Of a DNA stretch of 64,000 nucleotides, positions 1,019 through 27,775 are shown one piece after another (position 1 is the first letter of the stretch; every line of letters starts with the position of its first letter). Under the pieces are notes generated by a model. The model was not told where the DNA came from, made no database searches, and worked only from the letters and a program-made list of their open reading frames with translations. The position numbers and the translations under genes were made by a program. This stretch comes from an uncultured Candidatus Peribacteria bacterium (GTDB taxonomy: Bacteria; Patescibacteriota; Gracilibacteria; Peribacterales; Peribacteraceae). The stretch is taken from contig CAYUZT010000003.1 of the NCBI GenBank assembly GCA_964449445.1, forward strand, positions 110,371 through 174,370, given 5' to 3'.

Positions 1019-1024
1019 AGTTCT

Positions 1025-4664: not shown

Positions 4665-4749
4665 TTTCGAAAATATACAGCTCTTCGTACGTCTCAGTCC
4701 ATGGAAGGCATACAATCGTAGTTTTCTTAATTCCCTTCCCAATATCTCT

Positions 4750-5100: not shown

Positions 5101-5171
5101 TGATGCCTTGCGGATTCATGTTCAAAGAATTCTGGCTGGGGAGGAAGGTCTGCTTCGCAAGCTACGCAGAC

Positions 5172-5465
5172 CTATTCTCCACCAAACATTTTCTGCTCCG
5201 CACGCTTCGCAAAAGCTTTTGACCAGAAATGACGTTTCGCGAACGCATATCCAGAACCTCCTTTCAAATAGCGTTCAAATGCTTCAGCCTTTTCCCGTTC
5301 TTGAAAACTTACAATGACCTCAATCTGCCATGGAATATGAGCAGATGTTGTTCGGGTGATTCCGCGATTATGTTCCTCGATGCGTTCGCGAAAATCCTTG
5401 GTTGTGAATCCCACGTATGTCATTAGCGGGTTTTTGATACTTCGAAGAAGGTAGACGTGAAACAT
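5172..5465 (-). CDS. GIY-YIG nuclease domain protein
   Basis: MFHVYLLRS...TYVGFT..RIEEHN....W..E..V.F..R..A...E..LK pattern. TATTCT lies 8 nt upstream of the ATG. Confidence 0.7.
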   Translation of the reverse strand: MFHVYLLRSIKNPLMTYVGFTTKDFRERIEEHNRGITRTTSAHIPWQIEVIVSFQEREKAEAFERYLKGGSGYAFAKRHFWSKAFAKRAEQKMFGGE

Positions 5466-5508
5466 AGCGCGCAAGAATAGCCAATTCTGCGAAGCTTGCG
5501 AAGCAGAA

Positions 5509-5583
<75 letters not shown>

Positions 5584-5665
5584 ATGCCGAAAGCAGCTTA
5601 CCAGAATCTGAAAGTCAAAAACCTGATCTGCGATTGAGCGATAAAGTTGATACAATCGTGAATGT

Positions 5666-6388: not shown

Positions 6389-6479
6389 CCTTTACGGCAT
6401 TTTTTTTCAATATGTGTAAGAATACCAATACAGAGGTGTCTTCTTTCTATCGCCCGAAAACCCCCTCTTCAAAGTAGAT

Positions 6480-7838: not shown

Positions 7839-8197
7839 GCAAACACGTCCTCATTGCCGAAGACGACACTCTCCTTGCAGATATGATGGGGAAAATTCTG
7901 AGCAAGAACAACGTACGCGTCACGATCACCTATAACGGGCAGGAAACGATAGAAGCTCTGGAGAAGGAAAAGCCGGATGTCCTGCTTCTCGACGTCCTCA
8001 TGCCGGTGCTGGATGGGCACCATGTGTTGAAGGTCATGAAGGAGAAAAAGTTGGATTGCCCTATCATCGTGCTGACCAATCTCAACGATGCAATGACGAG
8101 GAAGCAATGCAGGGAGATGCAGGTGAAAGAGTATTTCGTGAAGAACGACATGGACGATGATTTCCTCTGGCCCGCGGTTGAGAAGTATCTGCAGTAG
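7835..8197 (+). CDS. stand-alone response-regulator receiver domain
   Basis: IAEDD acidic pocket, LLLDVLMP phospho-acceptor Asp, VLTN, and K in EYFVK. 4-nt overlap with the kinase gene. Confidence 0.85.
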   Translation: MSKHVLIAEDDTLLADMMGKILSKNNVRVTITYNGQETIEALEKEKPDVLLLDVLMPVLDGHHVLKVMKEKKLDCPIIVLTNLNDAMTRKQCREMQVKEYFVKNDMDDDFLWPAVEKYLQ

Positions 8198-8270
8198 ACC
8201 GCTGATCGCTTCCCAGCAAAAACAAACACGGCATCTTCACTTTTCTGGTTTCCTCCTTCCCCCAACCTCT

Positions 8271-8642
8271 ATGAGCGAACAACAAAAACATGTGCTCATT
8301 GCCGAAGATGAAGCATTCCTGCTCAGCATGATGCGGAGCATCCTCAATCAGCACGGTGTTCGCGTGAGCACTGCGCAGAATGGACAGGAAGCCATCGACA
8401 TCATCATCAAAGACCCCCCTGACCTGCTTCTGCTCGATCTGCTGATGCCGCATGTCGACGGCTTTGCCGTTTTGCAGCATAGGAAAGACAAGAAAATGAA
8501 ATTTCCTGTCGTTGTCTGTTCCAACCTCAGCGACAAGGCAAACATAGAAAAATGTGAAGAGTTTAACGTGAACGAATACCTGATCAAAAGCGATATGGAT
8601 GACGATCAGATTTGGATTATTGCGGAAAAATATCTACGATAA
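8271..8642 (+). CDS. stand-alone response-regulator receiver domain (paralogue of the previous gene)
   Basis: MSEQQKHVLIAEDEAFLL, LLLDLLMPHVDG, VCSNLSD. The C-terminal tail NEYLIKSDMDDDQIWIIAEKYLR parallels KEYFVKNDMDDDFLWPAVEKYLQ of the upstream receiver. Start at the internal ATG. Confidence 0.85.
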   Translation: MSEQQKHVLIAEDEAFLLSMMRSILNQHGVRVSTAQNGQEAIDIIIKDPPDLLLLDLLMPHVDGFAVLQHRKDKKMKFPVVVCSNLSDKANIEKCEEFNVNEYLIKSDMDDDQIWIIAEKYLR

Positions 8643-14386: not shown

Positions 14387-16279
14387 ATGCGCACGTCCGC
14401 ATGTTCACGCACACTCAGTTCGATCGCTGTCCTCGCAGTGCTCATGGCATCGGGAAGCATTGCGCTCCCGATTGATACCGCATTCGCCCAGCTGAATCGT
14501 CAGTGCCAGGACGGGCTCGATAACGACAATGACGGCGCCGCGGATTACCCGAATGATTTCGGCTGCATCTCTGCCGACGACAACGACGAGCTGTATACGA
14601 AGTCACAGTGCCAGGATGGATACGACAACGACCTCGACGGACAGACCGACCTCAATGATCCCAGCTGCACCGACCGACAGGACAATGACGAAAGCAGTCT
14701 CCCGGGCCGGCCGCAATGCCGTGACGGCATCGATAACGATAGTGACGGCACCGCCGATTACCCGAACGACTTCAGCTGCTCTTCCGCCGATGACGCCGAC
14801 GAAGGCTGGCCACGCGCCCAGTGTCAGGACGGTTACGATAACGATGCGGATGGCCTCATCGATTTCCCCCAGGATCCGGCCTGCACGGGTGTCCAGGATA
14901 ATGATGAAAAAGTGTTTTCCACGAACTTCACGAACTGCAGTGACGGCATCGATAACGACGGGGACGGAGCAATCGACTACCCGAATGACGCAAGCTGCGC
15001 TTCCCCCAACGCTATCGATGAGCGCTATCCCGTCCTTGCATGCCAGGACGGCATCGATAACGACCGGGACGGCAAAACCGATTACCCCAACGACCTCGGC
15101 TGCACGGGCGCGCAGGATTCGACCGAAGAGGATGCTTCCCGCCGTACGTCGCAGTGTGGCGATGGCGTCGATAACGACGGCGACGGTGCTGCAGACTTCC
15201 CGTTCGATTACAGCTGTTCCTCAGTAGAGGACTCGGACGAAACGAAGCCAGAGGCGGAATGCGAGGACAAAAAAGACAATGACGGCGACGGCTTTTCCGA
15301 TTATCCCGAAGATCCCGGGTGCATCAGCACGCAGGATAACGACGAAGGCAACGCCACCAGCATGTCGCAGTGCCGCGACGGCATCGATAACGACGGGGAC
15401 GGAGCCGTGGACTATCCCAACGATTTCGGTTGCGCGAGCGGAGACGACACCGACGAAGTCTTTCCGAAGTCCAAGTGTCAGGACGGACACGATAACGACA
15501 ACGACGGACTGGTCGATTTCCCGCAGGATTCCGGCTGCGAGAACCCGCAGGACAATAACGAAAAGAATGTCGGCAAGGTCACGCTCGTCCTGACGGCGAA
15601 TCCCGATCCGCTGGCAGCAGGAGACGAAATTCGCTATTCCTTGGTATTCCGCAACAACGGGAATGCGGCCCAGACAGACCTGCGCGTTCAGCAAAACCTT
15701 CCCGCAGGCCTGACGTTCCTCTCCGCAACCGAAGGGGGCTATAACCGTTATGACGGTATTATTCTGTGGGCGCGCATCACCGTTCCCGCCTATTCCACGA
15801 AGACGCTCACCTTGAGTGCGCGCGCTGACCCAGGACTCACTCCGGGAAAGAAGCTCCAGACGCTCGTGTATGTGAACGACACGGTCATGGCCGAATACAC
15901 CAGCACGGTGAAATCGCAGCCACAGGGGGCCTTCCTGCAGACTCCGGGAAACTTCACGCCACCCTACCCCGTTCCCGAGGGAGGTGTATATGTGCCCCAG
16001 TACGACAATCCATCACAGCCGTATAACGCCTATTCACCGGTTCAGGACACCCAGTCCTATGGAATGGCAGAGGCAGCGTCGTACGACCCGTACGCAGGAG
16101 AAACCCCGCTGCTCCCCGTAACCGGAATCGAAGATTTCACCCGTCCTCTGGAAGACCTGACCCGTTTCCTCCGTCCGGTGTCATCCAATTCTCCCGGACT
16201 GCCGGGAGCGATGTGGGCCCTGGTGACCGTCATTGGCATGCTGACAGGCGGAGTCCTGAGTAAGAAATATTTTGTGTGA
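14387..16279 (+). CDS. surface protein P1: signal peptide, 10 Cys-bounded Asp-rich repeats, one DUF11-like domain, P/Y-rich spacer, LPVTG-type C-terminal tail
   Basis: Start at internal ATG (MRTSACSRTLSSIAVLAVLMASGSIALP). Ten CxDGxDNDxDGxxD[YF]PxDxxC repeats. LVFRNNGNAAQTDLRVQQNLPAGLTFLSATEGG is DUF11-like. The tail is LLPVTGIEDFTRPLEDLTRFLRP..hydrophobic..KKYFV. Confidence 0.8.
   Translation: MRTSACSRTLSSIAVLAVLMASGSIALPIDTAFAQLNRQCQDGLDNDNDGAADYPNDFGCISADDNDELYTKSQCQDGYDNDLDGQTDLNDPSCTDRQDNDESSLPGRPQCRDGIDNDSDGTADYPNDFSCSSADDADEGWPRAQCQDGYDNDADGLIDFPQDPACTGVQDNDEKVFSTNFTNCSDGIDNDGDGAIDYPNDASCASPNAIDERYPVLACQDGIDNDRDGKTDYPNDLGCTGAQDSTEEDASRRTSQCGDGVDNDGDGAADFPFDYSCSSVEDSDETKPEAECEDKKDNDGDGFSDYPEDPGCISTQDNDEGNATSMSQCRDGIDNDGDGAVDYPNDFGCASGDDTDEVFPKSKCQDGHDNDNDGLVDFPQDSGCENPQDNNEKNVGKVTLVLTANPDPLAAGDEIRYSLVFRNNGNAAQTDLRVQQNLPAGLTFLSATEGGYNRYDGIILWARITVPAYSTKTLTLSARADPGLTPGKKLQTLVYVNDTVMAEYTSTVKSQPQGAFLQTPGNFTPPYPVPEGGVYVPQYDNPSQPYNAYSPVQDTQSYGMAEAASYDPYAGETPLLPVTGIEDFTRPLEDLTRFLRPVSSNSPGLPGAMWALVTVIGMLTGGVLSKKYFV
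14504..15562 (+). repeat. ten tandem coding repeats (about 29 aa plus linker) of the Cys-bounded DNDxDG module, alternating between two subtypes
   Basis: Examples are CQDGLDNDNDGAADYPNDFGCISADDNDE / CQDGYDNDLDGQTDLNDPSCTDRQDNDE / CRDGIDNDSDGTADYPNDFSCSSADDADE / CQDGYDNDADGLIDFPQDPACTGVQDNDE, and so on. Confidence 0.9.
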
Positions 16280-16301
16280 TCCACGTCTTCCCTTTCTTTG
16301 T

Positions 16302-16988
16302 ATGAGCTCTATCACTGGATCATCCTCGGCGCGCTCCCTCCCGGGGACGATGCTGCTCGCCTCACTGGCGGTGATCACAGCCGCGGGCGTCATGGGAACT
16401 GCTCATGCAGAATCCGGAATTCTCGTCACGGTGACGTCGTCTTCTTCCAGCGCCCAGGCTTCCTCCGCAAGCAGTGATTCCGTTACTGAGGACGATACCG
16501 AAGAAGTCGCGAACATCAACAACAACGTAAATACGCAAACCGTCACGGTGACCTCCGGACAGCCCACGATTACCATCGGCGCTCCGACTATCAACGTCAC
16601 GACAGAAGCCGCTGCCGTCACGGCAACAGCAACAGCATCTCCGCTGCTCAACGGAACAGCCGGCGCAGCGCAGTATCCTCCGTTCCCTCCGTATCCCACC
16701 TACCCCCCGTATCCTTTTGCCCTTCCTCCGCAGGTGTTTCCCATTCCCCCGCCGCCTCCCGTCATCGCACAACCCTCTATCCCCGCCCCGGAGCCGTTAC
16801 CGCCATTCATTCAGCCGCTTCCCGTCACGGGAATTGAAGATTTCACGGGCCCTTTGGAAGATGTCCGTCGTTTTCTGAGGCCATTTTCTTCCTCGGGATC
16901 ATCGGTCCCGGGTGCCGGTCTTTGGACACTTATTGCTTGCCTCGGCCTCAGTATGGGAGGAATCCTGGGAAAGAAGTATCTCTCCTAA
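16302..16988 (+). CDS. surface protein P2: signal peptide, Ser-rich region, NVNTQ..VTVT module, Pro-rich region, LPVTG-type tail
   Basis: MSSITGSSSARSLPGTMLLASLAVITAAGVMGTAHA, NINNNVNTQTVTVTSGQPTITIGAPTINVTTEAAAVTATATASP, and YPPFPPYPTYPPYPF. The tail is PLPVTGIEDFTGPLEDVRRFLRP..KKYLS. Confidence 0.75.
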   Translation: MSSITGSSSARSLPGTMLLASLAVITAAGVMGTAHAESGILVTVTSSSSSAQASSASSDSVTEDDTEEVANINNNVNTQTVTVTSGQPTITIGAPTINVTTEAAAVTATATASPLLNGTAGAAQYPPFPPYPTYPPYPFALPPQVFPIPPPPPVIAQPSIPAPEPLPPFIQPLPVTGIEDFTGPLEDVRRFLRPFSSSGSSVPGAGLWTLIACLGLSMGGILGKKYLS

Positions 16989-17042
16989 TCCTTCCTCCTC
17001 TCTTTCCCTCCCATCTTCTCCGTTTCCATTCCCCTCCGTCCC

Positions 17043-18401
17043 ATGAAAAAGCGTTTCTCTCTCCTTACGGCCGTTCTCCTTCTCTCGGGACTTCTCCCTG
17101 GATTCGATGTCTTGGGAGCCGGCACCGCGGACCTCTGGATCAAGATGACACTGCCGCCACAGCTTGAACCGTTCAGTGATCCGGACGTTCCGCAGGAAAT
17201 CACCGTGATGAACGTCGGTTCGGAGACGGTTCCGGGAGCGACGGTCACCGAGATCATCCCTCCTGGACTGTCGTTTTTTCCCGCTGTCTCGCCCTCCTAC
17301 TGTTTGGCGAGCGCAGGGGTTGTCACCTGCACTCTGCCCTCGCTTGCTCCCGGACAATTCACGACGTTCATGTTGTACCTGCTCGCACCCCGAAACATGA
17401 CGTGCCCGTCGACGCTCACAAAGACCGTGACGGTCACAACCGTCGGGATCATCGACGTGAATTTGAGCAATAACACATCGACCGCGAGTGCGCTCATCAC
17501 CTGCCCCGTGAGCTCTTCTTCCTCCAGCAGTTCGCAGCCTCCTCTCGCAAAATGTCGGGACGGCATCGACAACGACGGTGATGGACTGATCGACTTCCCG
17601 GCTGACCCCGGATGCTCCAGCCTGCAGGACAATAGCGAATTGAACGGTACCGGGGGCTCCAACAACCAGAACAACAACGTGAATACACAGAACGTCACCG
17701 TCACAACGGCCGGGCAGACCATCACTATCCCATCGCCCAACATCAATGTGACAACGACGGCACCCGCCGTGAACGCCACGGCAACGGCTTCTCCATCGTC
17801 GACATTCGGTAACCCGGCAGGAGGAGGTTTCGGCCAGTATCCTCCTTATCCCCCGTACCCTCCCTATCCTCAGTACTCACCGTACCCGCAGTATCCGACT
17901 CCGTTCTCTGCGTATCCGTCGTACGCTCTCGGGAATCAGTATCCATCGTACATTCAGAACAATCAGTACCCGTCGTACATTCCGTACGGCCAGTACCCGC
18001 AGTATGGGCAGCCCTACTCACCCGCGTACTTCCCCTATCTGTCGACGAACGCCTATTTGAATGCCGCGCAATGCAGCGACGGTATCGATAACGACAACGA
18101 TGGCGCTGTCGATTACCCGCGTGATCTGGGCTGCGTGAGTCCTCAGGATAACAATGAAATCAACGACTACTTCTATGGAAACGCATCTGCCCCCCAGTGC
18201 CGCGATGGCATCGATAATGACCGGGACGGCACCGTGGACTACCCGAGGGATCTCAGCTGCAGTTCTCCCAATGACAATGATGAGAAGTACCCGCTCCCGC
18301 ATTGCTCCGACGGTATTGATAACGACGGGGACCGGCTCTTCGACTATCCGCGGGATCCGGGTTGTGTGAACCCCCGGGACAACAACGAAAGCCGACGCTG
18401 A
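17043..18401 (+). CDS. secreted protein P3: DUF11-like domain, 1+3 Cys/Asp repeats, NVNTQ module, Tyr/Pro-rich region; no LPVTG tail
   Basis: Signal peptide MKKRFSLLTAVLLLSGLLPGFDVLGA. Repeats at 17553-17639 and 18072-18389. YPPYPPYPPYPQYSPYPQYP low-complexity tract. Confidence 0.75.
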   Translation: MKKRFSLLTAVLLLSGLLPGFDVLGAGTADLWIKMTLPPQLEPFSDPDVPQEITVMNVGSETVPGATVTEIIPPGLSFFPAVSPSYCLASAGVVTCTLPSLAPGQFTTFMLYLLAPRNMTCPSTLTKTVTVTTVGIIDVNLSNNTSTASALITCPVSSSSSSSSQPPLAKCRDGIDNDGDGLIDFPADPGCSSLQDNSELNGTGGSNNQNNNVNTQNVTVTTAGQTITIPSPNINVTTTAPAVNATATASPSSTFGNPAGGGFGQYPPYPPYPPYPQYSPYPQYPTPFSAYPSYALGNQYPSYIQNNQYPSYIPYGQYPQYGQPYSPAYFPYLSTNAYLNAAQCSDGIDNDNDGAVDYPRDLGCVSPQDNNEINDYFYGNASAPQCRDGIDNDRDGTVDYPRDLSCSSPNDNDEKYPLPHCSDGIDNDGDRLFDYPRDPGCVNPRDNNESRR

Positions 18402-18416
18402 ATCAGCATCCTGCTC

Positions 18417-18452
18417 GAAAGGCCACCAGTGACAATCTGGAGGCCTTTTTGG
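18417..18452 (+). terminator. rho-independent terminator after P3
   Basis: GAAAGGCCACCAG-tgacaat-CTGGAGGCCTTTTT: a 12-13 bp stem with one mismatch, followed by a T run. Confidence 0.7.
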
Positions 18453-18487
18453 CTATTTGAGCACTAAAACAGTGAAGAAAATGGTAC

Positions 18488-18516
18488 TAGACAAGATCAT
18501 TTTTCCATGTTATAAA
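18488..18516 (+). promoter_or_regulatory. sigma-70-like promoter TAGACA-N17-TATAAA upstream of P4
   Basis: -35 at 18488-18493 and -10 at 18511-18516. TATAAATTaCCCCTTTTG and the first five codons (MRTSA) are shared with the P1 upstream region. Confidence 0.6.
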
Positions 18517-18548
18517 TTACCCCTTTTGTTTTCTCCAATCCCTCCCCT

Positions 18549-20390
18549 ATGCGTACGTCCGCATTCCACCGGTTCCTGAGTACGCTAGTCGCTCTCGCGC
18601 TCCTCATGCCACTGGGAGGGTCTCTGTTGACCATCGAGACTGCCTCGGCAAGCCACTCGCAGTGCAGTGACGGAGTGGATAATGACGATGACCGGAGAAT
18701 TGACTACCCGACCGATAGCGATTGCACGTCGATCGATGATAACAGCGAAGACATCGATAACGGCGTCTTCGTCACGGTCACGGATAACCGCGACCAGGTC
18801 GCCCCCGGCGACGCCATCACGTACATCATCGCGCTCAAGCAGCAGCGCGACGCGGTGAAACTGGTGAATGTCGCGCTCCATGTCCCGTCGCAGAATTCCA
18901 TCGTCTCCACGAGCGATGACGGCACGATCCGCGATGGAAGCGTTCTCTGGCACAAAGTCGCCGTCTTCAAGAACAACATCCGCCGCCTCACCGTGCACGT
19001 GGTCACGAGTCCGTACGTAGAGCCGGGACAGCTTTTGGTCGCGCGGGTTACGGCCGACGGTAGCCAGGCAAGCGATACCACGATGGTTGAGGGAGGACGC
19101 GCAATCCCCTATGTGCAGAACCAGTTGGAAGTCTCCATTGACGATCATCGCGAGAGCGCGCAGCCCGGCGATATCCTCGAGTACCTCGTGACGGTGCGCA
19201 ATCCCGGGGACACCCGCACGGCGGTCCATGTTCGCGTGAAGATTCCGTCTGCCCTCCGCGTGATTGATGCACGAGGTGCGGACTTCCTGGGCAGCGACAT
19301 CGTCTGGCAGAACATCACGGTGAATCCCGGCCAGGAACGCACGTTCGTCTTCCGGGCATCCGTCGACACGCGCCTTCCGCAGCACTTCCCGATCCAGGTT
19401 GTGGCGAGAGCGGGGAACGTGATCGCCTACGACCGCACCGTCACCGGCGGCGGCTCGGGCCCGTACGCGCTCTTCTCGTCCATCACCGATAACCGCGATA
19501 CGGCGGAGCGGGGCGATCTGCTCACCTATGTGATCCACGTCGATAACACCTCGGGCTCTCTGGATCCCAATGCGAGCATCTCCGCAGGCCTGCCCATCCA
19601 CAGCGAATTCGTCTCCGCGACCGAAGGCGGCACGTGGGATGGCACAAACGTCCGGTGGCTCCACACGACGATTGCACCCAATGGCAGCCGGGACCTGGAA
19701 TTCACGGTCCGTGTCCGCACCGACGCTCCCGACGGCACGCTCCTGAGGGCCTCGGCCCGGGTGCGGGGCTTCGTCACGAGCGACATCACGCAGGTGGGAG
19801 GGTATTACTCGGGCTACCGGGAGCAGCCGTACGATAGCCAGTCTCTGAGCGTCGAAAAGCGAGTCGATCGTCCGTATGCGTCTGCGGGCAGTTCGGTCAC
19901 CTACACGATCACCGTTCGGAACATGCTCGACCGGGAGTTGATCGGCATCGACGTGAACGATGCCTACGATGCAGCAGTCTTGAGAATCACCGATCCCGGC
20001 TCCGGCAGTGTACGCAACGGCAGGATCTTCTGGATCCTGGATGCCCTCTCGCCCGGTGAAGTCCGCACGTTCACCTACACCGGAAGACTGACACAGTCTC
20101 TTCGCTCCGATGCAGGTGTCCTCAATACCGCCCGCGCATACATTGGCGCGAGCGATGTCGGCTACGTTCCGACGGGTGGGTATTACGATGACAGAACGAC
20201 ATTCGACCACTATCTGCTTCCCGTCACGGGCGTCGGCGACTTCTTCGCTCCGCTCGAAAATACCGCTCAATTTTTGTCACCTATTCGTTCTGCAACAGAA
20301 GGAAATGGCCTGCCCGCATTGCTTTGGCTGGGACTGATTGCCGTGGGACTTGCCGCAGGAATGTTCTTGGGAAAGAAGATCAGGGCCTAA
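18549..20390 (+). CDS. surface protein P4: signal peptide, one Cys/Asp repeat, four DUF11-like domains, LPVTG-type tail
   Basis: CSDGVDNDDDRRIDYPTDSDCTSIDDNSE (18663-18749). Repeated blocks such as DNRD.a.pGD.ltY.i...N.g appear four times. The tail is LLPVTGVGDFFAPLENTAQFLSP..hydrophobic..KKIRA. Confidence 0.8.
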   Translation: MRTSAFHRFLSTLVALALLMPLGGSLLTIETASASHSQCSDGVDNDDDRRIDYPTDSDCTSIDDNSEDIDNGVFVTVTDNRDQVAPGDAITYIIALKQQRDAVKLVNVALHVPSQNSIVSTSDDGTIRDGSVLWHKVAVFKNNIRRLTVHVVTSPYVEPGQLLVARVTADGSQASDTTMVEGGRAIPYVQNQLEVSIDDHRESAQPGDILEYLVTVRNPGDTRTAVHVRVKIPSALRVIDARGADFLGSDIVWQNITVNPGQERTFVFRASVDTRLPQHFPIQVVARAGNVIAYDRTVTGGGSGPYALFSSITDNRDTAERGDLLTYVIHVDNTSGSLDPNASISAGLPIHSEFVSATEGGTWDGTNVRWLHTTIAPNGSRDLEFTVRVRTDAPDGTLLRASARVRGFVTSDITQVGGYYSGYREQPYDSQSLSVEKRVDRPYASAGSSVTYTITVRNMLDRELIGIDVNDAYDAAVLRITDPGSGSVRNGRIFWILDALSPGEVRTFTYTGRLTQSLRSDAGVLNTARAYIGASDVGYVPTGGYYDDRTTFDHYLLPVTGVGDFFAPLENTAQFLSPIRSATEGNGLPALLWLGLIAVGLAAGMFLGKKIRA

Positions 20391-20402
20391 AAGTAATTCA
20401 AT

Positions 20403-20468
20403 GAAGTCGAAGAGGTCGAGGAATCACACTCCTCGATTTCTTTGATTTCTTCTCTTTCCTCGATTTCC
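20403..20468. repeat. low-complexity hairpin element H1 (GAGGTCGAA-type units) between convergent P4 and pth
   Basis: Purine-rich arm GAAGTCGAAGAGGTCGAGGAATC, loop ACACT, pyrimidine-rich arm CCTCGATTTCTTTGATTTCTTC... The core is TCGAGG/CCTCGA. Outer mismatches are mostly G opposite T. Confidence 0.65.
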
Positions 20469-21025
20469 TACTCCTCCACTTTCTCCATCACAAACTTCGT
20501 CACTAGCTCCGGCAGCATTTTGAGGACCTCTTCGATCTTCTTCTTCTCGTCCGCCGGCGGAGTACTGAGCACCCACGTCGCGAGCTCTTCTCCCTTCGGC
20601 TGCGTTCCGCCAATGCCGATGCGCAGTCGCGGGAATTCTTCGCCCAATGTGACGACAATGGAACGCAGGCCGTTATGCGTTCCCGATCCGCCCTTCATCC
20701 GCAGCCGAACTTCGCCGAGCGGCAGGTCGATATCGTCGCAGAGCACCAGAACTTGTTCCCGCGGATTGAGCTTATAAAATTCAATAAGCTTTCGGATGCA
20801 TTCGCCGGAGCGGTTCACGTACGTCGTCGGCTGGACGAGCAGTACGGGCACCGTGACGATTCTCGCCTCCTGCATGCGGCACAGGAACTTCTGCTGATCT
20901 TTCCAGTCCCCTTCTCCGAACTGCTCGGAGAGAACTTCAACAGCTTGAAAACCGATATTGTGGCGTGTCTTCAGGTACTCCTTGCCGGGATTGCCGAGGC
21001 CGACAATGAGCAGGTGCGGTTTCAT
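20468..21025 (-). CDS. pth: peptidyl-tRNA hydrolase
   Basis: MKPHLLIVGLGNPGKEYLKTRHNIGF and GTHNGLRS motifs. Start at the internal ATG of ORF 20468..21181. Confidence 0.9.
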   Translation of the reverse strand: MKPHLLIVGLGNPGKEYLKTRHNIGFQAVEVLSEQFGEGDWKDQQKFLCRMQEARIVTVPVLLVQPTTYVNRSGECIRKLIEFYKLNPREQVLVLCDDIDLPLGEVRLRMKGGSGTHNGLRSIVVTLGEEFPRLRIGIGGTQPKGEELATWVLSTPPADEKKKIEEVLKMLPELVTKFVMEKVEE

Positions 21026-21032
21026 CGCCGGG

Positions 21033-21722
21033 TCAGATGCGTGAGGAGGTGAATGTTGACCTGCGTGGCCGCGGACGCGCCTGCGGAGAGGGATTCTTTT
21101 CCTTCGTAACGTCCTTCTCGCGAACAGCAGGATCTTTGTTCTCTTTCGTGAGTTCGCCTTCCTGCATGCGCTGCGCGACAAAGGTGGAAATCAATTCCTC
21201 GACGTGCTTCGCATTCTTCAGATTTTTCGTATGGAGATAGGCTTCCATGTTCTTGAGAATCGTCGATTCCACAGCTCGCGGACGCGGAACATTCTCGAGC
21301 GAGACGGTGGATCCCGTGGAGATCTTCTCGATCGCGACCGTGCCGTAGCGCATCACTGTTCCGAGGATCCCGTGGATCTCGTAGCTGACGCCCTGGATGT
21401 CGCTGTAGAGGATGCGCGACGACTGCCGGTGAAACCACCCGAGCCATTCCAGATCGATGATGCCGTGATCGGTGATGATCCAGGCATCCAGATAGTAATC
21501 GAGGAAATTCCGCATCCACCACACGAGCGACGCGATGCCCCAGAGCGCCGCAACGATGACGGTGATCTGCGAGAAGCGGATGGCGAGCAGGAGATCGGCC
21601 AGGAGAAAAGAGACCGTTGGCCAGAGGAGAAATCGAAGGCCGAGCAGCCAGTGCTTGTGCACGATCATCGCGACGTGTTCGTCGTCCTCCAGGTGCTTTT
21701 TGAAGAGGAAACTATCGAGCAT
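21033..21722 (-). CDS. membrane protein with bacterial PH (YdbS/YdbT-like) domain
   Basis: Two N-terminal TM helices are followed by a PH-like segment (ITDHGIIDLEWLGWFHRQSSRILYSDIQGVSYEIHGILGTVMRYGTVAIE). Basic tail. Confidence 0.45.
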   Translation of the reverse strand: MLDSFLFKKHLEDDEHVAMIVHKHWLLGLRFLLWPTVSFLLADLLLAIRFSQITVIVAALWGIASLVWWMRNFLDYYLDAWIITDHGIIDLEWLGWFHRQSSRILYSDIQGVSYEIHGILGTVMRYGTVAIEKISTGSTVSLENVPRPRAVESTILKNMEAYLHTKNLKNAKHVEELISTFVAQRMQEGELTKENKDPAVREKDVTKEKNPSPQARPRPRRSTFTSSRI

Positions 21723-21780
21723 GGCCCTCAGTGTAGCGTTTCGGACAAAGCGCTGTACACCGCTCGAGGCGCTCCGTAGA

Positions 21781-22416
21781 ATGCCCCGGATGAAGCTCCA
21801 AAAGCACGGATTCTGGTATCACCTCCTCGACGTTCTCTTCAATATCGTCGTGATCGTTGCGATCGTGGCGGCCATCCGCACATTCCTCGTCTCGCCGTTC
21901 CAGGTGGAGGGCAGTTCGATGATCGATACGCTCTACGACAAGGAGTACATCATCATCAATAAGTTCGCGTACCTTCTTGGGGAACCCTCGCGCGGGGACG
22001 TTGTGGTGTTCCGCCCTCCCAATGACCGGAAGAAGTACTACGTAAAACGCGTCATCGGCATGCCCGGCGATACCGTGACCATCAAGGACGGATTCGTGTT
22101 CGTCAAAACCCCCGGTGACGACGAGAGACACAAGCTGGAGGAAGCGGAGTACCTGAACTCGCGTAATCTGGGGAACACGTTCCGTCATCCTCCCAGCAGC
22201 GGCGACCGCACGGTGGTGACCTACGACGTTCCGGCAGGTCAGTACTTTCTGCTCGGAGACAACCGTCAGGGAAGCCTGGATTCCCGCAGTTTCACAGGTG
22301 ACGGCGGCAAGCAAACACCCTTCGTTCAGGAGAGCGACATCAAGGGTCGCGTGTGGTTCATTGCGCTCCCGATCACGAAGATTCATGCGCTGGAAGAGCC
22401 GGAGTACGGGCTATAA
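21781..22416 (+). CDS. lepB: signal peptidase I
   Basis: GSSMIDTL, GDVVVFRPP, YVKRVIGMPGDTV, GDNRQGSLDSR. An alternative in-frame ATG lies at 21721. Confidence 0.9.
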   Translation: MPRMKLQKHGFWYHLLDVLFNIVVIVAIVAAIRTFLVSPFQVEGSSMIDTLYDKEYIIINKFAYLLGEPSRGDVVVFRPPNDRKKYYVKRVIGMPGDTVTIKDGFVFVKTPGDDERHKLEEAEYLNSRNLGNTFRHPPSSGDRTVVTYDVPAGQYFLLGDNRQGSLDSRSFTGDGGKQTPFVQESDIKGRVWFIALPITKIHALEEPEYGL

Positions 22417-22420
22417 AAAA

Positions 22421-22547
22421 AGAATCCGACGACTCCGAGGAATCCGAAGAGTCCGAGGTCCAGACGGAAAAGGAGAACGGTAACTTTTCCTCGTTTCACT
22501 ATTTCCCACGCCAACTGGACCTTGGCATCTTCGGAATCTTTGGAGTC
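22421..22547. repeat. low-complexity hairpin element H2 (GGAnTCCGA units) between lepB and secE
   Basis: The 33-nt arms ending at 22463 and starting at 22515 are complementary at 27 of 33 positions by my count. The loop is about 51 nt. Confidence 0.7.
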
Positions 22548-22637
22548 TTTTTTAACGTAAATTTCCCTTGCAGCAGTTCTGATTTCCTGTAACATAAGTA
22601 CGGCCCCTGAGGGCTTTTTTCTTTAGTCTTTCGAACC

Positions 22638-22832
22638 ATGGTCACCACTCTCACCACCTACCTTCGCGAAGCGATTCAGGAACTGGAACTCGTCCGGTGG
22701 CCGACTCGCCAGCAGGCGGTCCGGCTCTCCGTCGTCGTGCTGCTCTTCACGCTTGCGTCCGCAGCGGCGTTCGGGCTCGTGGATTTCCTCCTCAGTTCGC
22801 TCGTCAGTTTCTTGCTCTCCTTCGCCGTCTAA
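22638..22832 (+). CDS. secE: preprotein translocase subunit SecE
   Basis: 64 aa with LREAIQELELVRWPTRQQ followed by a single TM helix. Immediately upstream of nusG. Confidence 0.85.
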   Translation: MVTTLTTYLREAIQELELVRWPTRQQAVRLSVVVLLFTLASAAAFGLVDFLLSSLVSFLLSFAV

Positions 22833-22833
22833 T

Positions 22834-23379
22834 ATGGGCAAACAGGATCCCCGGGCAGGACGGAATTGGTATGTCCTGCACACGTACTCCGGCTACGAAG
22901 ACAGCGTCAAACAGGCGCTTGAGCAACGGGTGGAATCGCTCGGCATGCAGGATTACATTTTCTCGGTCATGGTCCCCAAGGAGAAGCAGCTCGTGTTCAA
23001 AAAGGGCGAGCCGGTGGAAGAGGAAAAAAAGTTGTTTCCCGGATACGTCCTGGTCGACATGATCGTGACGGATGAATCGTGGTACGTCGTCCGCAATACC
23101 CCCAATGTCACCGGTTTCGTCGGCTCCGGAAACATTCCCGTCGCTGTGAGCCCGGAAGAATTCGGCGTCATCGAGCGGCGCATCGGCGAAGAGCAAGCGA
23201 AGTTCAGGAGCGACTTCCAGGTAGGCGATCTGGTGATCATCATCGACGGGCCGTTCAAGAACTACGAAGGCTCCGTGCAGAGCGTGGATGTGAATAAAGG
23301 AAAGCTCAACGTTGCCGTCCTCATTTTCGATCGTGAGACGCCGGTTGAGTTGGACTTCACGCAGGTAAAAAAGAAATAG
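22834..23379 (+). CDS. nusG: transcription termination/antitermination factor NusG
   Basis: WYVLHTYSGYEDSV, LFPGYVLVDM, VRNTPNVTGFVG, and KOW segment GDLVIIIDGPFKNYEGSV. Start at the internal ATG at 22834. Confidence 0.95.
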   Translation: MGKQDPRAGRNWYVLHTYSGYEDSVKQALEQRVESLGMQDYIFSVMVPKEKQLVFKKGEPVEEEKKLFPGYVLVDMIVTDESWYVVRNTPNVTGFVGSGNIPVAVSPEEFGVIERRIGEEQAKFRSDFQVGDLVIIIDGPFKNYEGSVQSVDVNKGKLNVAVLIFDRETPVELDFTQVKKK

Positions 23380-23495
23380 GACTCCGAGGATTCCAAAGAT
23401 TCCAAGGACCAGTTGGAAAGGTCGTAATAAACTGCAGAAAATCTGCGATTCTCGGTATACATCTGGACCTTGGACTCTTCGGAATCTTTGGAATC
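23380..23495. repeat. low-complexity hairpin element H3 (same family as H2 and H9) between nusG and acyP
   Basis: Arms GGACTCCGAGGATTCCAAAGATTCCAAGGACCAG and CTGGACCTTGGACTCTTCGGAATCTTTGGAATC are complementary at 27 of 33 positions by my count. 50-nt loop. Confidence 0.75.
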
Positions 23496-23520
23496 TTTTG
23501 GATTGTTCTATCATACCCTC

Positions 23521-23790
23521 ATGCCCGCTACCCGTATCATCATCTCCGGCCTCGTCCAGGGCGTCTTCTTCCGCGCACAAGCCAAAGAGCAGGCGGATGC
23601 ACTCGGAATTACAGGCTGGGTGCGTAATAACAATGACGGCTCCGTGGAAATTCACGGCGAAGGATCTGACGATATGCTCAATAAGCTCACAGAATGGTGC
23701 CGCACGGGTCCGGAGAAAGCGGTCGTGAAGAATGTCACGGTAACGGTTCCATTGGAGCAGCACTCCCCGGCATTCGAGATCTGGTATTGA
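23521..23790 (+). CDS. acyP: acylphosphatase
   Basis: ISGLVQGVFFRAQAKEQADALGITGWVRNNNDGSVEIHGEG. TATCAT lies 6 nt upstream of the ATG. Confidence 0.85.
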   Translation: MPATRIIISGLVQGVFFRAQAKEQADALGITGWVRNNNDGSVEIHGEGSDDMLNKLTEWCRTGPEKAVVKNVTVTVPLEQHSPAFEIWY

Positions 23791-25084
23791 TGACCTTCAT
23801 CAGGAGCACACCGAGCGCCATCGCCTGCAGGACTTGGCCGACCGCGTATCCGAGAGGAAGACTGAACACGCCGAAGCGCCCTACAAACACCCATGCGATG
23901 GTAATCGCCACGGCAGCAGAGAGCGTCCCGATCACCGCGGGGATCAGCGTGTTTTTGAGCGAGTAGAAGCAGCGCAGCAGAAGATGCGTGGAACTCTCAA
24001 AAGGAATACTCAGCGCGTACAGGATTAAACTCATGCGGAACGCCGGATACCACATGCTCGTGTGCAGGTGAACAAGTTGCGCAGCCACCGGCGCAATCAG
24101 AATCAACACCAGTGCCGCGGGAATCGTCAGCAGGAGCATCATGGCCATCCCCTTCTCCATGTAGATGCGAAATCTGTTCATCTCCCCCCTCGCAGCGGCC
24201 TGTCCCAGGAGCGAGTACGCCGACTGGGCGAGCGCGATGCCCACCACTCCGACGACGACGCTCTGGAAATTGCGCGAGTACGCGTTAATGGTGATGGAAC
24301 CGTTATCAAGACCCGAGGCGACGGTATCAAACAGCAGGAGCTGCAACTGCAGAGCGCCCAGTGCAAACATGCGCGGGAGCATGAGGATTCCCATGTGGTG
24401 GAGATCGGGATGCCAGAGCTTTTTCGGCAAGCGGAACCCCATGCGGAACACGACGGCTCCGCGAACGAGCACGTACACCACTGCCCCCAGGACCGTGCCG
24501 AGCATCGGGCCTTCGACTCCCACAAGCGGGGTCAGAAAGAGCGTTCCGATAATCGTCCCCGCGGTGTAGAGCACCGGCGTGAGGCCGTAGATCCAGTACT
24601 TCTGCTCGGTGATCAGCGCCTGGCCGAAGGAATTGCCGAAGACGAACAGGAAATTCGTCACAAGCGCCAAGCGGCCGAAGTGCACGTAGAGCGCAAGCTC
24701 TTCACCTGTAAATTGGACGAGATACGGGGCCACCCACGGGAGCGCGAGCCCCAGTGCGAGTCCGAGCACACCAAAGAACATGCTGCCGATCGCCATGGTG
24801 CCTCCCAGGACCTGCCACATCTGCGATGTTCTCCCATGCGCTTTGTGCGCCGCGAGCATCGGCACGAACACGGTCCCCAGAGCCGACATCACGCAGACCT
24901 GGAACAGAAGATCGCTTGGACGAAACGACGCGACGTACGCGTCCACAACACCCAGGCCCGGGAACGTGCGGGCGAGCAGATTATCGCGAACCAGACCCGC
25001 GAGTGACGCCGCAAACTGCGTTATAGCAAGGACGATTGCGCCTCCCATCAGGCGATGTTGGTGGAGGAATTGCGGAAGGCGCAT
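23735..25084 (-). CDS. murJ: lipid II flippase MurJ/MviN family
   Basis: Polytopic protein: AASLAGLVRDNLLARTFPGLGVVDAYVASFRPSDLLF, ITINAYSRNFQSVVVGVVGIALAQ. Start at the internal ATG; 56-bp convergent overlap with acyP. Confidence 0.8.
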   Translation of the reverse strand: MRLPQFLHQHRLMGGAIVLAITQFAASLAGLVRDNLLARTFPGLGVVDAYVASFRPSDLLFQVCVMSALGTVFVPMLAAHKAHGRTSQMWQVLGGTMAIGSMFFGVLGLALGLALPWVAPYLVQFTGEELALYVHFGRLALVTNFLFVFGNSFGQALITEQKYWIYGLTPVLYTAGTIIGTLFLTPLVGVEGPMLGTVLGAVVYVLVRGAVVFRMGFRLPKKLWHPDLHHMGILMLPRMFALGALQLQLLLFDTVASGLDNGSITINAYSRNFQSVVVGVVGIALAQSAYSLLGQAAARGEMNRFRIYMEKGMAMMLLLTIPAALVLILIAPVAAQLVHLHTSMWYPAFRMSLILYALSIPFESSTHLLLRCFYSLKNTLIPAVIGTLSAAVAITIAWVFVGRFGVFSLPLGYAVGQVLQAMALGVLLMKVINTRSRMPGSAAPMEPLP

Positions 25085-25134
25085 CCAGGGCAGGATAGCT
25101 GAATGCTGATGCAGATTCCTCCATGAACTTGGGA

Positions 25135-25175
25135 GCGGGCATTCTGCCCGCGTGTCCGCAGGCAAGAATGCCTGC
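25135..25175. promoter_or_regulatory. two adjacent near-identical 7-bp-stem hairpins in the murJ/purL divergent intergenic region
   Basis: GCGGGCA-ttc-TGCCCGC (25135-25151) and GCAGGCA-agaa-TGCCTGC (25158-25175). Confidence 0.35.
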
Positions 25176-25255
25176 TGCTTTATCCGGACTTTGCCTTCGT
25201 GCACCTCTTTGCGTATCTTTCCTCCATAGAAGTCCCTGTTCTCCAGTTTTCGGCG

Positions 25256-27712
25256 ATGAGCGACAGTGCCGTGAAGGAATCGCTCAAAAAATACTCGATT
25301 GGTTTGACGATCGAGGAAGCACGCAAGATCGAAACGCTGTTGGGACGCGCACCGACGGTTGTGGAAGCAGTTATATGGGGAATCCAGGGAAGCGAACACA
25401 GTAGCTACAAATCGTCCCGCAGGTTTCTAAAGATGTTTCCAACGACAGGAAAACACGTGATTCTCGGGCCGAAAGAAGATAGTGGAATCGTCGCACTCAC
25501 GGACGGGCCGCCCGGCAAGCGCTGGGGCATTGTGGTCAGCCATGAATCGCACAATCACCCCTCGCAGATCGTCCCCTTTGAAGGAGCAGCAACGGGAGTC
25601 GGCGGAACCGTTCGCGATGTCGCGTGCATGGGCGCGCGGGTCGTCGGGTGCATGGATATGCTGCGACTGGGTGACCTCAAGACGGCGGAGACGCGCAGCA
25701 TTGCGAAGGAAGTGATGCGCGGGATTGGAGGCTATGGAAATCCGCTCGGAGTTCCGAATCTCGGTGGTGATACGGTCTTCGACGCCGGGTTCAACAGTAA
25801 CTGTCTGGTCAATGCTATTGCGATCGGGATCGTCCGGGAAGACGAGGTGATCCATAGCGAAGTGCCCGAGGAGGCGGCCCGCGAAGGATACGACCTGATC
25901 ATTGTCGGAAAGCCGACGGACAGAAGCGGCTTCGGCGGTGCGGCGTTTGCGAGCGTGAGCATGGAGGAAGAGAAGAAGGAACAGAACAGCGGCGCAGTGC
26001 AGGAACCCAACCCCTTCCTGGAACGCCATTTGCTCGTCTCGACCTACGCGCTGTTCGACTGGCTCGCGGAGTCCAAAAACCTCCATCGCGTGAGCTTCAA
26101 GGATCTGGGCGCTGGAGGCGTCGTCTGCTCAACTGTGGAACAGGTGTCCGGACGCAACTTTGGTGCCGATGTGGAACTGGCGAGCGTCCACGTATCCATC
26201 CCCAATCTTCCTCCGGAAGTGATCGCCTGCGCCGAAACGCAGGAACGCTTCTGCTGGGCGGTGCATCCCTCACTCACGGGTCACATCCTGAAGCATTACA
26301 ACGTCGACTGGGATCTCCCGAGCGTTGCAGAACACGCCCGCGCCAGCGTGGTCGGGAAGGTGAATGGTTCGGGAATCTATCACCTGACGCATAACGGCGT
26401 GACCGTCTGCAAAGCAAAGTCGCAGGACATCACGTCTGGGCTTCAATACACCAGACCGACGAAGTTGAACGAACCAAAACGAGAAGAGCCTCATATCAGT
26501 TGTGATCAAACTGGAGAGATACGAGTTAACGAGTTAACGAATCAACGAGTCTTCACTACAACGATCACTCAAATCTTCCGCTCGATGCTCGCTCACCCCA
26601 ATCACGCCTCAAAATCCCGCGTCTTCCGCCACTACGACAAAACCGTCATCGGCAATACGATCGTCGAGGCCGGCGAAGCCGATGCATCGGTGATCATGCC
26701 CCTGAGAGACTTGCCCTCGTATCTCCCGGGAGGATCGCATCCTGATTGGAAGCTCTCCGCGAAAGAAGAAATTGTGGGAGCGGTCTTCGCGGCCGATGGG
26801 AATCCGCGCTACGGACGGATCTCTGCGTACTGGCAAGGAGTGCTTGCGGCCGTCGAATCCATGATGAACGTCGTGGCAACGGGAGCGACTCCGCGCGCAC
26901 TCACCGATTGTCTCAATTACGGCAATCCCGAAATCCCCGGGCACCTCGCGGCTCTGGAAGCGGGCGTGAAGGGGATCAGTGATGCGGCACGCGCGATCAC
27001 ATTTGATGGAGAGGGTGTGCCCGTGATCTCCGGGAACGTCAGCCTCTACAATTCCCTTCCCGATGGGAATTCCATTCCCCCATCGGCGATTGTCTGCACC
27101 ATCGGCGTGATTCCCGATGCGCGCAGAGGCCTCACCATGCAGGTGGAACACTCCGGGTCACGTCTTTTCCTCATTGGTGAGCGAAAAGATGAATGCGGCG
27201 GTTCCGCCTACTACGAAGTACTGGAACAGATGTGCGGAGCGGAGCGCGACGCATTGCTGGGATCATCGCTTCCAAAACCAGATTTCGCCGACGTGACCAA
27301 GCAGATGCAGCTCGTCATCAATGCGTGCGCGAAGGACCTTCTCCTGTCGTGTCATGACATCAGCGATGGCGGACTCCTCCTCGCACTCTTCGAAATGCTC
27401 CTCCCACGACGCAAGCTCGGCGGCACATTGGGGGTGGACATAGACCTCGCGTTGCTCACGAGTTCCCTGAGTGCCGACAAACTTCTGTTTTCACAAACGC
27501 CGGGATTCATCGTGGAGATCGCCCCCACTCACGTGCAGGCGTTCACAACACTAAGTGAAACGCATGACATGCAGGTAGCAGACATCGGAGCCGTGAACGG
27601 GGGTGGGAAACTCACGATCATGCATGGCAAACACTCAGTCCTCTCCGAGCATATCGTTGGTCTTCGAGAAACCTGGGAGCGCTCATTAACGGAAGTATTG
27701 GACAAACGTTGA
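25256..27712 (+). CDS. purL: phosphoribosylformylglycinamidine synthase subunit PurL
   Basis: LTIEEARKIETLLGRAPTVVEAVIWGIQGSEHSSYKSS, ESHNHPS, and GGYGNPLGVPNLGG. Start at the internal ATG at 25256. Confidence 0.9.
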   Translation: MSDSAVKESLKKYSIGLTIEEARKIETLLGRAPTVVEAVIWGIQGSEHSSYKSSRRFLKMFPTTGKHVILGPKEDSGIVALTDGPPGKRWGIVVSHESHNHPSQIVPFEGAATGVGGTVRDVACMGARVVGCMDMLRLGDLKTAETRSIAKEVMRGIGGYGNPLGVPNLGGDTVFDAGFNSNCLVNAIAIGIVREDEVIHSEVPEEAAREGYDLIIVGKPTDRSGFGGAAFASVSMEEEKKEQNSGAVQEPNPFLERHLLVSTYALFDWLAESKNLHRVSFKDLGAGGVVCSTVEQVSGRNFGADVELASVHVSIPNLPPEVIACAETQERFCWAVHPSLTGHILKHYNVDWDLPSVAEHARASVVGKVNGSGIYHLTHNGVTVCKAKSQDITSGLQYTRPTKLNEPKREEPHISCDQTGEIRVNELTNQRVFTTTITQIFRSMLAHPNHASKSRVFRHYDKTVIGNTIVEAGEADASVIMPLRDLPSYLPGGSHPDWKLSAKEEIVGAVFAADGNPRYGRISAYWQGVLAAVESMMNVVATGATPRALTDCLNYGNPEIPGHLAALEAGVKGISDAARAITFDGEGVPVISGNVSLYNSLPDGNSIPPSAIVCTIGVIPDARRGLTMQVEHSGSRLFLIGERKDECGGSAYYEVLEQMCGAERDALLGSSLPKPDFADVTKQMQLVINACAKDLLLSCHDISDGGLLLALFEMLLPRRKLGGTLGVDIDLALLTSSLSADKLLFSQTPGFIVEIAPTHVQAFTTLSETHDMQVADIGAVNGGGKLTIMHGKHSVLSEHIVGLRETWERSLTEVLDKR

Positions 27713-27730
27713 AAAGTCGGGAGATTGAGA

Positions 27731-27763
27731 CCCAAACCCTAGCCCCAACCCCAACCCCAACCC
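27731..27763. repeat. C-rich tract containing (CCCCAA)3, directly upstream of a TATACT box
   Basis: The tract CCCAAACCCTAGCCCCAACCCCAACCCCAACCC is followed by TATACT (27764-27769), 6 nt, and the ATG at 27776. Confidence 0.8.
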
Positions 27764-27775
27764 TATACTTCTCCC

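Follow-up and report, generated by a model that had tools for sequence, protein, structure and literature searches.

A 64,000-nucleotide stretch of the genome of an uncultured Candidatus Peribacteria bacterium (contig CAYUZT010000003.1; hereafter the window) encodes four adjacent secreted proteins, P1 to P4, three of which (P1, P2 and P4) end in closely similar C-terminal tails. Each tail comprises the pentapeptide LPVTG, a conserved 17-residue block, a short spacer, a transmembrane (TM) helix and a basic end, and the question raised by the locus is what these tails do and whether something reads the block that separates the pentapeptide from the helix. Sortase signals are usually treated as a pentapeptide followed by a generic anchor. 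Here a clade of the Candidate Phyla Radiation (CPR) conserves an extra 17-residue module to the same degree as the pentapeptide, across dozens of surface proteins that are unrelated. The reading we favour, to which we assign a probability of roughly 0.6, is that the tails of P1, P2 and P4 constitute a clade-specific extended LPXTG-type sorting signal of a Candidatus Peribacteria (Peregrinibacteria, CPR) sub-lineage, in which the block provides docking or positioning for a cognate sortase or a membrane partner.

An extended C-terminal tail on three neighbouring proteins

14387-16279, + strand: P1, 630-residue secreted protein (open reading frame (ORF) table and Pfam/NCBIfam matches)
16112-16126, + strand: LPVTG of P1
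16127-16177, + strand: 17-residue block of P1, IEDFTRPLEDLTRFLRP
16178-16201, + strand: Ser/Gly spacer of P1
16202-16261, + strand: TM helix of P1
16262-16276, + strand: KKYFV of P1
16302-16988, + strand: P2, 228-residue secreted protein
16818-16985, + strand: tail of P2, with LPVTG 16818-16832, block IEDFTGPLEDVRRFLRP 16833-16883, spacer 16884-16910, TM helix 16911-16970 and KKYLS 16971-16985
17043-18401, + strand: P3, 452-residue secreted protein with a CLIPPER domain and 4 acidic double-disulfide repeats, no tail
18549-20390, + strand: P4, 613-residue secreted protein with at least 3 CLIPPER/DUF11 domains, one acidic repeat and the extended tail
20217-20387, + strand: tail of P4, with LPVTG 20217-20231, block VGDFFAPLENTAQFLSP 20232-20282, spacer 20283-20312, TM helix 20313-20372 and KKIRA 20373-20387

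P1 to P4 are co-directional in the ORF table, with which the gene calls on identical public contigs agree, and their N-termini are signal-peptide-like by inspection (basic n-region, hydrophobic core, AxA-like site). The tails of P1, P2 and P4 follow one order: LPVTG, the 17-residue block, a Ser/Gly-rich spacer of 8-10 residues, a hydrophobic stretch of about 20 residues (Kyte-Doolittle hydropathy 1.8-2.3) and KK plus three residues. Across the three proteins the block reads [IV][EG]DFxxPLE[DN]xxxFL[RS]P. A degenerate DNA pattern for LPxTGxxDFxxPLE matches the window three times, against 0 matches in 100 shuffles, and a hidden Markov model (HMM) built from 62 tails retrieves exactly the tails of P1, P2 and P4 from the six-frame translation of the window (E 1e-22 to 1e-24). 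In the same translation this HMM finds no tail remnant downstream of P3, frameshifted or otherwise.

An earlier note on this DNA, made from the sequence alone, had given the coordinates of P1, P2 and P4, their LPVTG positions and tail sequences, and had stated that P3 lacks the tail; the ORF table, the pattern and the HMM agree with it on all these points. It had also called the linker acidic, a description that has to be corrected: the block has a net charge of about -1 to 0 and is mixed-charge and amphipathic. Its statement that the mature parts differ holds for the sequence just before LPVTG, which is unrelated among P1, P2 and P4, but not throughout, since P1, P3 and P4 have CLIPPER/DUF11 domains and acidic repeats in common and P2 and P3 share one module.

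A modular domain restricted to one lineage

An HMM of the three window tails, run exhaustively against 1.84 billion representative proteins, retrieved 60 clusters at E<=1e-3. The matches always lie at the extreme C-terminus of their host proteins, which range from 58 to 2597 residues, and for these reasons the tail is not a quirk of three paralogues. A scan of the kind suggested in the earlier note uncovers a family beyond the window. The note had named as refuting an outcome in two parts, a tail confined to P1, P2 and P4 and no enzyme that co-varies with it; the confinement is refuted. Its claim that the block is conserved independently of the mature part stands, given about 60 clusters, at least seven Peribacteria metagenome-assembled genomes (MAGs) and unrelated passenger domains. 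The tail is a rare, modular, lineage-restricted C-terminal domain rather than a local peculiarity of paralogues.

A scan of GTDB with a degenerate DNA pattern, taking one genome per species (185,579 species), gave 14 matches, nine of them in Candidatus Peribacteria MAGs from seven species. All nine display the tail architecture, with the X of LPxTG varying among K, R, Q, A, T and N; one (L005) stops before the helix and another (L011) is masked there by a run of X. The five matches outside Peribacteria have neither helix nor basic end and were discarded as chance. Every tail match that carries a taxon label belongs to Candidatus Peribacteria, and the P4 orthologues with NCBI names are assigned to Ca. 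Peribacteria or Peribacteraceae. The degenerate pattern found one locus in JGI metagenomes. A related-locus search of GTDB genomes with the tail gave no match where the degenerate pattern succeeded, and a word-indexed homologue search with tail alignments, a method ill-suited to short domains, returned nothing or three tiny fragments.

Gene order around P4 is conserved within the lineage. The NusG and LepB proteins of the window are 98% and 79% identical to those of the Peribacteria MAG Baikal-deep-G211, with which the arrangement P4 - pth - bPH_2 membrane protein - lepB - secE - nusG - murJ - purL is syntenic. A wider Peribacteria synteny (window 18549-29056; L007, L015 and L029) runs from the tail-bearing CLIPPER protein through pth, the bPH_2 membrane protein, signal peptidase I, secE, nusG, acylphosphatase, murJ and purL to an SLH-domain protein and murC. 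In the MAG binchicken_co105_403 (L005, 4205-4891, - strand) the homologue stops at ...LPRTGAGDFVSPLEDGSKFVTPLKK*, immediately past the block, and no frame downstream encodes a TM helix; this could be a naturally truncated, perhaps released, variant, a pseudogene or an assembly error.

Conservation and selection

Conservation was counted on an alignment of 62 tails (A2). Within the pentapeptide T and G are invariant (62/62), P is present in 57/58 and L in 49/58, and X is free (Q, V, A, K, R, T and others). The columns of the block hold D in 52/56 tails, P in 47/57, E in 46/58, F in 52/58, L in 55/58 and the closing P in 58/62, so that the information per column in the block is about that of LPxTG; aligned, the tails give the consensus LPxTG-x-G-D-F-T-x-P-L-E-N-T-x-R-F-L-x-P. 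The block is found in tails only and always begins two residues past TG. Conservation extends further downstream to a recurrent helix start, [IL]PxxxW (P 46/61, W 50/62), to two near-invariant glycines (each 52/62) and small-residue motifs (G..A.GG) within the helix, and to the terminus G[KR][KR][FY]F.

Four tails carry a second xPxTG at the position of FLxP (P0016 FLTPVTG, P0045 FLRPVTG, P0051 FLRPITG and P0060 FLSPVTG), in each case at the canonical distance of 8-10 residues ahead of the helix. FLxP-x-x-G was considered as a second or ancestral sortase motif and rejected, as only 4/62 tails read xPxTG and the positions after P are not conserved; the second motif is probably coincidental.

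Among nine P4 orthologues, LPxTG and the block form the most conserved stretch of the last 150 residues. Mean pairwise identity is 76% over this segment; the last CLIPPER domain has 59%, the linker that precedes LPxTG and is rich in indels 24%, the spacer 54%, and the helix with the basic end 47%. The codons of P1 and P2 were compared over the 24 positions from LPVTG to one residue beyond the block, 20 of which encode the same residue: 8 codons are identical, 12 differ synonymously and 4 non-synonymously, for a nucleotide identity of 69%. Because 12 of the 20 same-residue codons differ synonymously, the pattern indicates that the tail is kept at the protein level by purifying selection and not by recent gene conversion. 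The remaining account of the likeness, recent paralogy or gene conversion among adjacent genes with no function involved, could appeal to the adjacency of the genes and to a 79-nt direct repeat of 71% identity over the P1 and P2 tails, but it is refuted by these synonymous differences in LPVTG and block and by the GTDB scan and the profile search, which place the tail in at least seven other MAG species and about 60 clusters with unrelated passengers.

Structure prediction of the tail is of low confidence. AlphaFold2 models reach an overall predicted local distance difference test (pLDDT) score of 64 for the isolated tail (block about 57) and of 45 for the last 150 residues of P4 orthologues (block about 30-45), and only the TM helix is credible (pLDDT 68-86). 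A low-confidence helix runs from two residues before the start of the block through its FL in the isolated-tail model, whereas the 150-residue model has it start at the L of PLEN and continue far into the spacer; an amphipathic helix in the block is, on these models, only a propensity. A PDB sequence search with the tail profile returned generic TM helices only and nothing similar to the tail.

Relation to ordinary sortase signals

A search with full-length P4 recovered two groups of relatives. Group A consists of syntenic orthologues with 55-66% identity to P4, all with the extended tail, although that of one member (P0074, L029) is degenerate. Group B is a CLIPPER protein family with 31-42% identity to P4, contributing 45 tails, in which one protein (P0101) is labelled Ca. 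Peribacteraceae by NCBI. Group B tails are of the ordinary kind, [FLM]PxTG-AGMD-helix-QRK; their median length is 34 residues (31-41) and their spacer has 1-4. In the extended tails the distance from G to the helix is 20-26 residues and the domain spans 52-59, which bears out the departure from classical spacing that the earlier note had pointed to.

The genomic context of group B is conserved as well (7TM_transglut / ATP-grasp - CLIPPER - T4SS_pilin - KH - rpsP). At three group B loci (L026, L027 and L028) the gene lies at 10001-118xx, preceded by 7TM_transglut and ATP-grasp genes and followed by T4SS_pilin-like, KH-domain and rpsP genes; a frameshift splits the L027 copy, whose tail sits in a separate 49-residue call.

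Tails were compared with the model libraries of NCBIfam (release 20, June 2026) and Pfam. Group B tails match TIGR01167 in register, the alignment beginning at the pentapeptide (profile positions 1-3 onward), at 14.5-18.3 bits; a positive control, the tail of S. aureus protein A, scores 25.9 bits, also in register. The P4 tail aligns with this model through its helix only (residues 31-57, profile positions 8-33), at 12.9 bits and below the 15.9-bit cut-off, the P1 and P2 tails have no TIGR01167 match, and full-length P1, P2 and P4 match no LPXTG-anchor model. Over the 62 tails, TIGR01167 matches 12 at E<=1 (best E 0.0058) and PF00746 matches 2, while other NCBIfam and Pfam models yield only isolated single-tail matches with E values of 0.003-0.8. 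Conversely, the extended-tail profile does not detect group B tails.

The extended tail has several attributes of an LPXTG anchor, namely a pentapeptide with conserved T-G, a TM helix with a basic C-terminal end and, by inspection, an N-terminal signal peptide on the protein; it does not have the short spacer (domain of about 34 residues) or a score above the curated HMM cut-off, and on account of these two differences we do not file it as a plain member of TIGR01167. Since the related group B tails are ordinary and align with TIGR01167 in register, the extended tail looks derived. The simplest reading of the sequences is that it elaborates a normal sortase signal, which gained some 20 residues behind TG-x-x-D and had its helix remodelled.

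The search for a cognate enzyme

No sortase was found in the window, in agreement with the earlier note. Precomputed Pfam calls over about 80 kb (the window and about 8 kb at each end, from identical contigs) contain no PF04203 sortase; Pfam at E<=1 on 10 unannotated ORFs of the window, phmmer with SrtA from S. aureus and from S. pyogenes, and a TLxTC-type regular expression did not reveal a sortase in the window either. Nor is a sortase linked to the tail at 14 further tail-bearing or related loci, including three of group B; precomputed Pfam calls, which covered 8 other loci besides the window, gave none there. The genomes of Ca. Peribacter riflensis encode sortase A and many large Cys-rich exported proteins (PMC4736985), and the sortase family is present in more than half of CPR genomes (PMC6744442). 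Given that genomes of the lineage have sortases and that other tail loci also lack a linked one, the absence from 64 kb says little. The earlier note's argument from conservation is supported: a plain anchor would not need such conservation, and with the block conserved on unrelated passengers through synonymous changes, a trans-acting reader can fairly be supposed.

All-against-all BLAST of the neighbours at 11 tail-bearing loci revealed no recurrent neighbour beyond housekeeping synteny (pth, bPH_2, lepB, secE, nusG). An Rce1-like CPBP protease lies two genes upstream of the P1 orthologue at one locus (L025) and is absent from the window and the other loci; as a candidate cognate enzyme it is, in view of this single occurrence, only a weak rival. 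The locus (ENA ERZ27247830 k141_735218, 685-8389) comprises a helix-turn-helix regulator, the CPBP intramembrane protease (948-1637), DUF1761, the P1 orthologue with its tail and two more tail-bearing genes. Public gene calls within its Ser-rich genes are on the wrong strand, and an 80-residue protein called there (P0036) is really the end of a 424-residue ORF. Two envelope cysteine enzymes are encoded in the window, a Peptidase_C39_2-domain protein (61312-62097, - strand) and a weakly matching YkuD-like L,D-transpeptidase (54366-54956, + strand); nothing ties either to the tails.

Proposed mechanism and alternative explanations

Under the extended-signal reading, tail-bearing proteins would be exported by the Sec pathway through their N-terminal signal peptides, and the C-terminal TM helix with its Lys/Arg pair would stop transfer and keep the precursor membrane-bound. 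Cleavage between T and G of [LM]PxTG would then fall to a sortase whose gene lies outside the stretch analysed, and this enzyme would link the CLIPPER/Cys-repeat passenger to the wall. The insertion of about 20 residues between pentapeptide and helix, with the module xGDFxxPLENxxxFLxP, would act as a docking or positioning element, possibly as a short amphipathic helix just outside the membrane, and might be read by an exosite of the cognate sortase or by its membrane partner, giving substrate specificity beyond the pentapeptide. The sequences show the architecture of the tail, its conservation and selection, its distribution in the lineage and its relation to short tails; the cleavage by a sortase and the role of the block in recognition are what we infer. 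The invariance of T and G next to a free X resembles the conservation pattern of sortase sites. A hydrophilic spacer between motif and helix is a hallmark of sortase-type signals, the signals of membrane-embedded enzymes being without one (Haft, 10.1101/2023.06.07.544157).

Several observations weigh against this reading. There is no sortase near any of the 15 loci examined. The conserved helix start [IL]PxxxW and the glycines within the helix are unusual for sortase signals and could point to a membrane-embedded reader. The tail models are of low confidence and place the predicted block helix on different residues. Taxon labels exist for only a minority of the roughly 75 tail-bearing proteins.

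A more demanding version, which we consider unlikely, is that the tail is a two-part sorting code: a sortase would cut LPxTG, and selection of the substrate or a second obligatory step would depend on a reader dedicated to the GDFxxPLENxxxFLxP block and the PxxxW/GxxxGG helix. Such a reader might be a new membrane protein or protease, or else a subfamily of sortases in which an exosite or TM-docking surface is novel, and the tail would then define a distinct CPR-specific sorting system and not a cosmetic variant.

The block might instead act after cleavage, as the outward part of a C-terminal remnant that stays in the membrane and is sensed by a signalling system or cleared by a protease. There is precedent in Streptococcus gordonii, where the LPXTG C-peptide that remains in the membrane is reported to be sensed by a two-component system (PMC11326707). 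Conservation spans the spacer, the helix start and the in-helix glycines, all of which such a remnant would retain, and a PAS histidine kinase is encoded together with two response regulators 6-8 kb upstream, although nothing ties them to the tails. However, no sensor or protease gene is conserved beside the tail genes in the loci compared, the block starts only two residues past the scissile bond, as would a docking element on the substrate side, and we know of no C-peptide with a conserved ectodomain of this kind. We regard this explanation as unlikely.

Another alternative is that a non-sortase enzyme (a CPBP/Rce1-like protease, a rhomboid or a factor acting at [IL]PxxxW) reads the tail wholly or in part, LPxTG being a second or vestigial site; sorting would then be dual or of a novel type. 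The conserved helix-start motif and small-residue pattern recall signals of the exosortase, archaeosortase and myxosortase type (10.1101/2023.06.07.544157), and at L025 an Rce1-like CPBP protease is encoded near three tail-bearing genes. Yet this neighbour occurs at only one of the tail-bearing loci examined and not in the window, and CPBP genes are common; of the NCBIfam sorting-signal models for those classes, only PEP-CTERM and MYXO-CTERM match at all, each 1/62 tails (E 0.18 and 0.12); and the invariance of T and G implies that the pentapeptide is not vestigial. The involvement of such an enzyme appears quite unlikely to us.

It is highly improbable that the tail stays uncleaved and serves permanently as a type I membrane anchor, with a stalk that is structured next to the membrane and a likeness to LPXTG signals that is only historical. 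No enzyme was found at the loci examined, and the L005 homologue, which ends after the block without a helix, indicates that the block can exist without an anchor; but a T-G pair that never changes while X varies freely is characteristic of a working sortase site, the relatives in group B have short sortase signals of canonical form, and a stalk need not sit exactly two residues past TG in every protein.

Domain architecture of the locus and other features of the window

The passenger parts at this locus are of a kind typical for surface proteins. CLIPPER, the new name of DUF11 (PF01345), is an intramolecular isopeptide-bond domain (PMC12617251) and is present in P1, P3 and P4. Acidic double-disulfide repeats (NF033662) number 10 in P1 and 4 in P3, with one sub-threshold copy in P4:

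14499-15567 (P1), 17548-17644 and 18069-18394 (P3) and 18660-18748 (P4), + strand: acidic double-disulfide repeats, NF033662, CxDGxDNDxDGxxDYPxDxxC

The repeats of P1 have a period of about 105-114 nt. The DxDxDG pattern of the acidic repeats resembles a calcium-binding loop, and the proteins with these repeats probably correspond to the 'very cysteine-rich' exported proteins of Ca. Peribacter riflensis (PMC4736985). From N- to C-terminus, P1 consists of signal peptide, 10 acidic repeats, one CLIPPER/DUF11 domain, a Pro/Tyr-rich linker and the extended tail, and P2, which has no Pfam or NCBIfam match at full length, of signal peptide, Ser-rich region, NNNVNTQTVTV module, Pro/Tyr-rich linker and extended tail. 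P3 contains the NNVNTQNVTV and PYP modules also found in P2; the two proteins have in common a Ser-rich stretch, an NNNVNTQ(T/N)VTVT...ATATASP module and a Pro/Tyr-rich (YPP) region. Because their homologues at L025 (5739-7118 and 7115-8389) combine a DUF11-like N-domain, an NNNVNTQ-type module and the extended tail, it looks as if P3 had arisen from such a protein by exchange of the tail for three acidic repeats.

Elsewhere in the window, trehalose genes (1025-3738 and just upstream of the window, L018 11858-14098) encode a GH15/TREH_N glucoamylase-like protein, a trehalose-phosphatase and an OtsA-type GT20 enzyme, beside copper and redox genes (HMA, DsbD_2, DSBA/thioredoxin, CsoR-like, P-type ATPase). 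For a CPR genome such metabolic and envelope-redox capacity is notable, and the disulfide machinery near the trehalose genes fits the Cys-rich repeats. A 23S rRNA-intervening-sequence or bAvd-like four-helix-bundle protein (PF05635) is encoded between the RRF and UMP kinase genes (46762-47187, - strand), and a 175-residue unannotated ORF (63047-63574, + strand) has a weak IS200-like Y1 transposase match (E 0.0015, below cut-off).

Significance and comparison with known systems

The earlier note had asked whether the block is already routine in the substrates of a described sortase class. No sign of this was found: NCBIfam and Pfam contain no description of it, and we found none of the tail in literature on sortases, LPXTG or sorting signals of Peribacteria, Peregrinibacteria, Patescibacteria or the Candidate Phyla Radiation. 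Since TIGR01167 and PF00746 miss the tails, the wall-anchored surface proteome of Peribacteria is systematically under-annotated, including adhesin-like proteins, Cys-rich or with CLIPPER domains, that have a presumed role in attachment to other cells, and an HMM from the 62 tails would repair the annotation. The tail also offers a natural experiment on substrate recognition beyond LPXTG by a sortase or its partner, with the short-tail family of group B as an internal control, and the block, should it prove to be an exosite tag, might find use in orthogonal sortase ligation. These results are of interest to specialists in protein sorting and in CPR cell surfaces, the more so if a dedicated reader of the block turns up.

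With the classical LPXTG signal (TIGR01167/PF00746) the extended tail has in common the signal peptide, the invariant T-G of the pentapeptide, the TM helix, the basic end and adhesin-like passengers with isopeptide domains; it differs in a spacer of 20-26 residues (vs 1-4) with a near-invariant 17-residue module and in a domain length of 52-59 residues as opposed to about 34. The short tails of group B share a homologous passenger, xPxTG and an acidic residue soon after it (TG-AG-MD vs TG-xG-DF), but they have neither the PLEN..FLxP module nor the PxxxW helix start, end in QRK, measure 34 residues and stand in another genomic context.

The PEP-CTERM/exosortase, PGF-CTERM/archaeosortase, GlyGly-CTERM/rhombosortase and MYXO-CTERM/CPBP myxosortase systems resemble the Peribacteria tail as modular C-terminal domains borne by many unrelated secreted proteins of one lineage, with a conserved helix-start motif, a basic end and a conserved tail that implies a dedicated reader. 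Their motif, however, abuts the helix (10.1101/2023.06.07.544157), whereas the invariant motif of the Peribacteria tail lies at least 20 residues away from it. The sensing of C-peptides in S. gordonii illustrates that what follows TG in a sorting signal can be functional in its own right. We found no linked sensor of this kind beside the tail genes in the loci compared, and the S. gordonii system is not known to have a conserved ectodomain block.

Lineage-specific variants in NCBIfam (NF058582 Microco_LAVTG, NF058571 GVDTG_CTERM, the doubled-motif LPXTG model NF033073 and NF033846 Rumino_NPXTG) are likewise clade-restricted versions of the sorting domain. Judged from model names and lengths, they alter or duplicate the pentapeptide and do not add a conserved module; run against the 62 tails, these models give one marginal match (NF033846, 1/62, best E 0.23). 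Clade-restricted variants of the sortase signal as such are therefore already known, and what is new in the Peribacteria tail is the insertion of about 20 residues carrying a near-invariant module.

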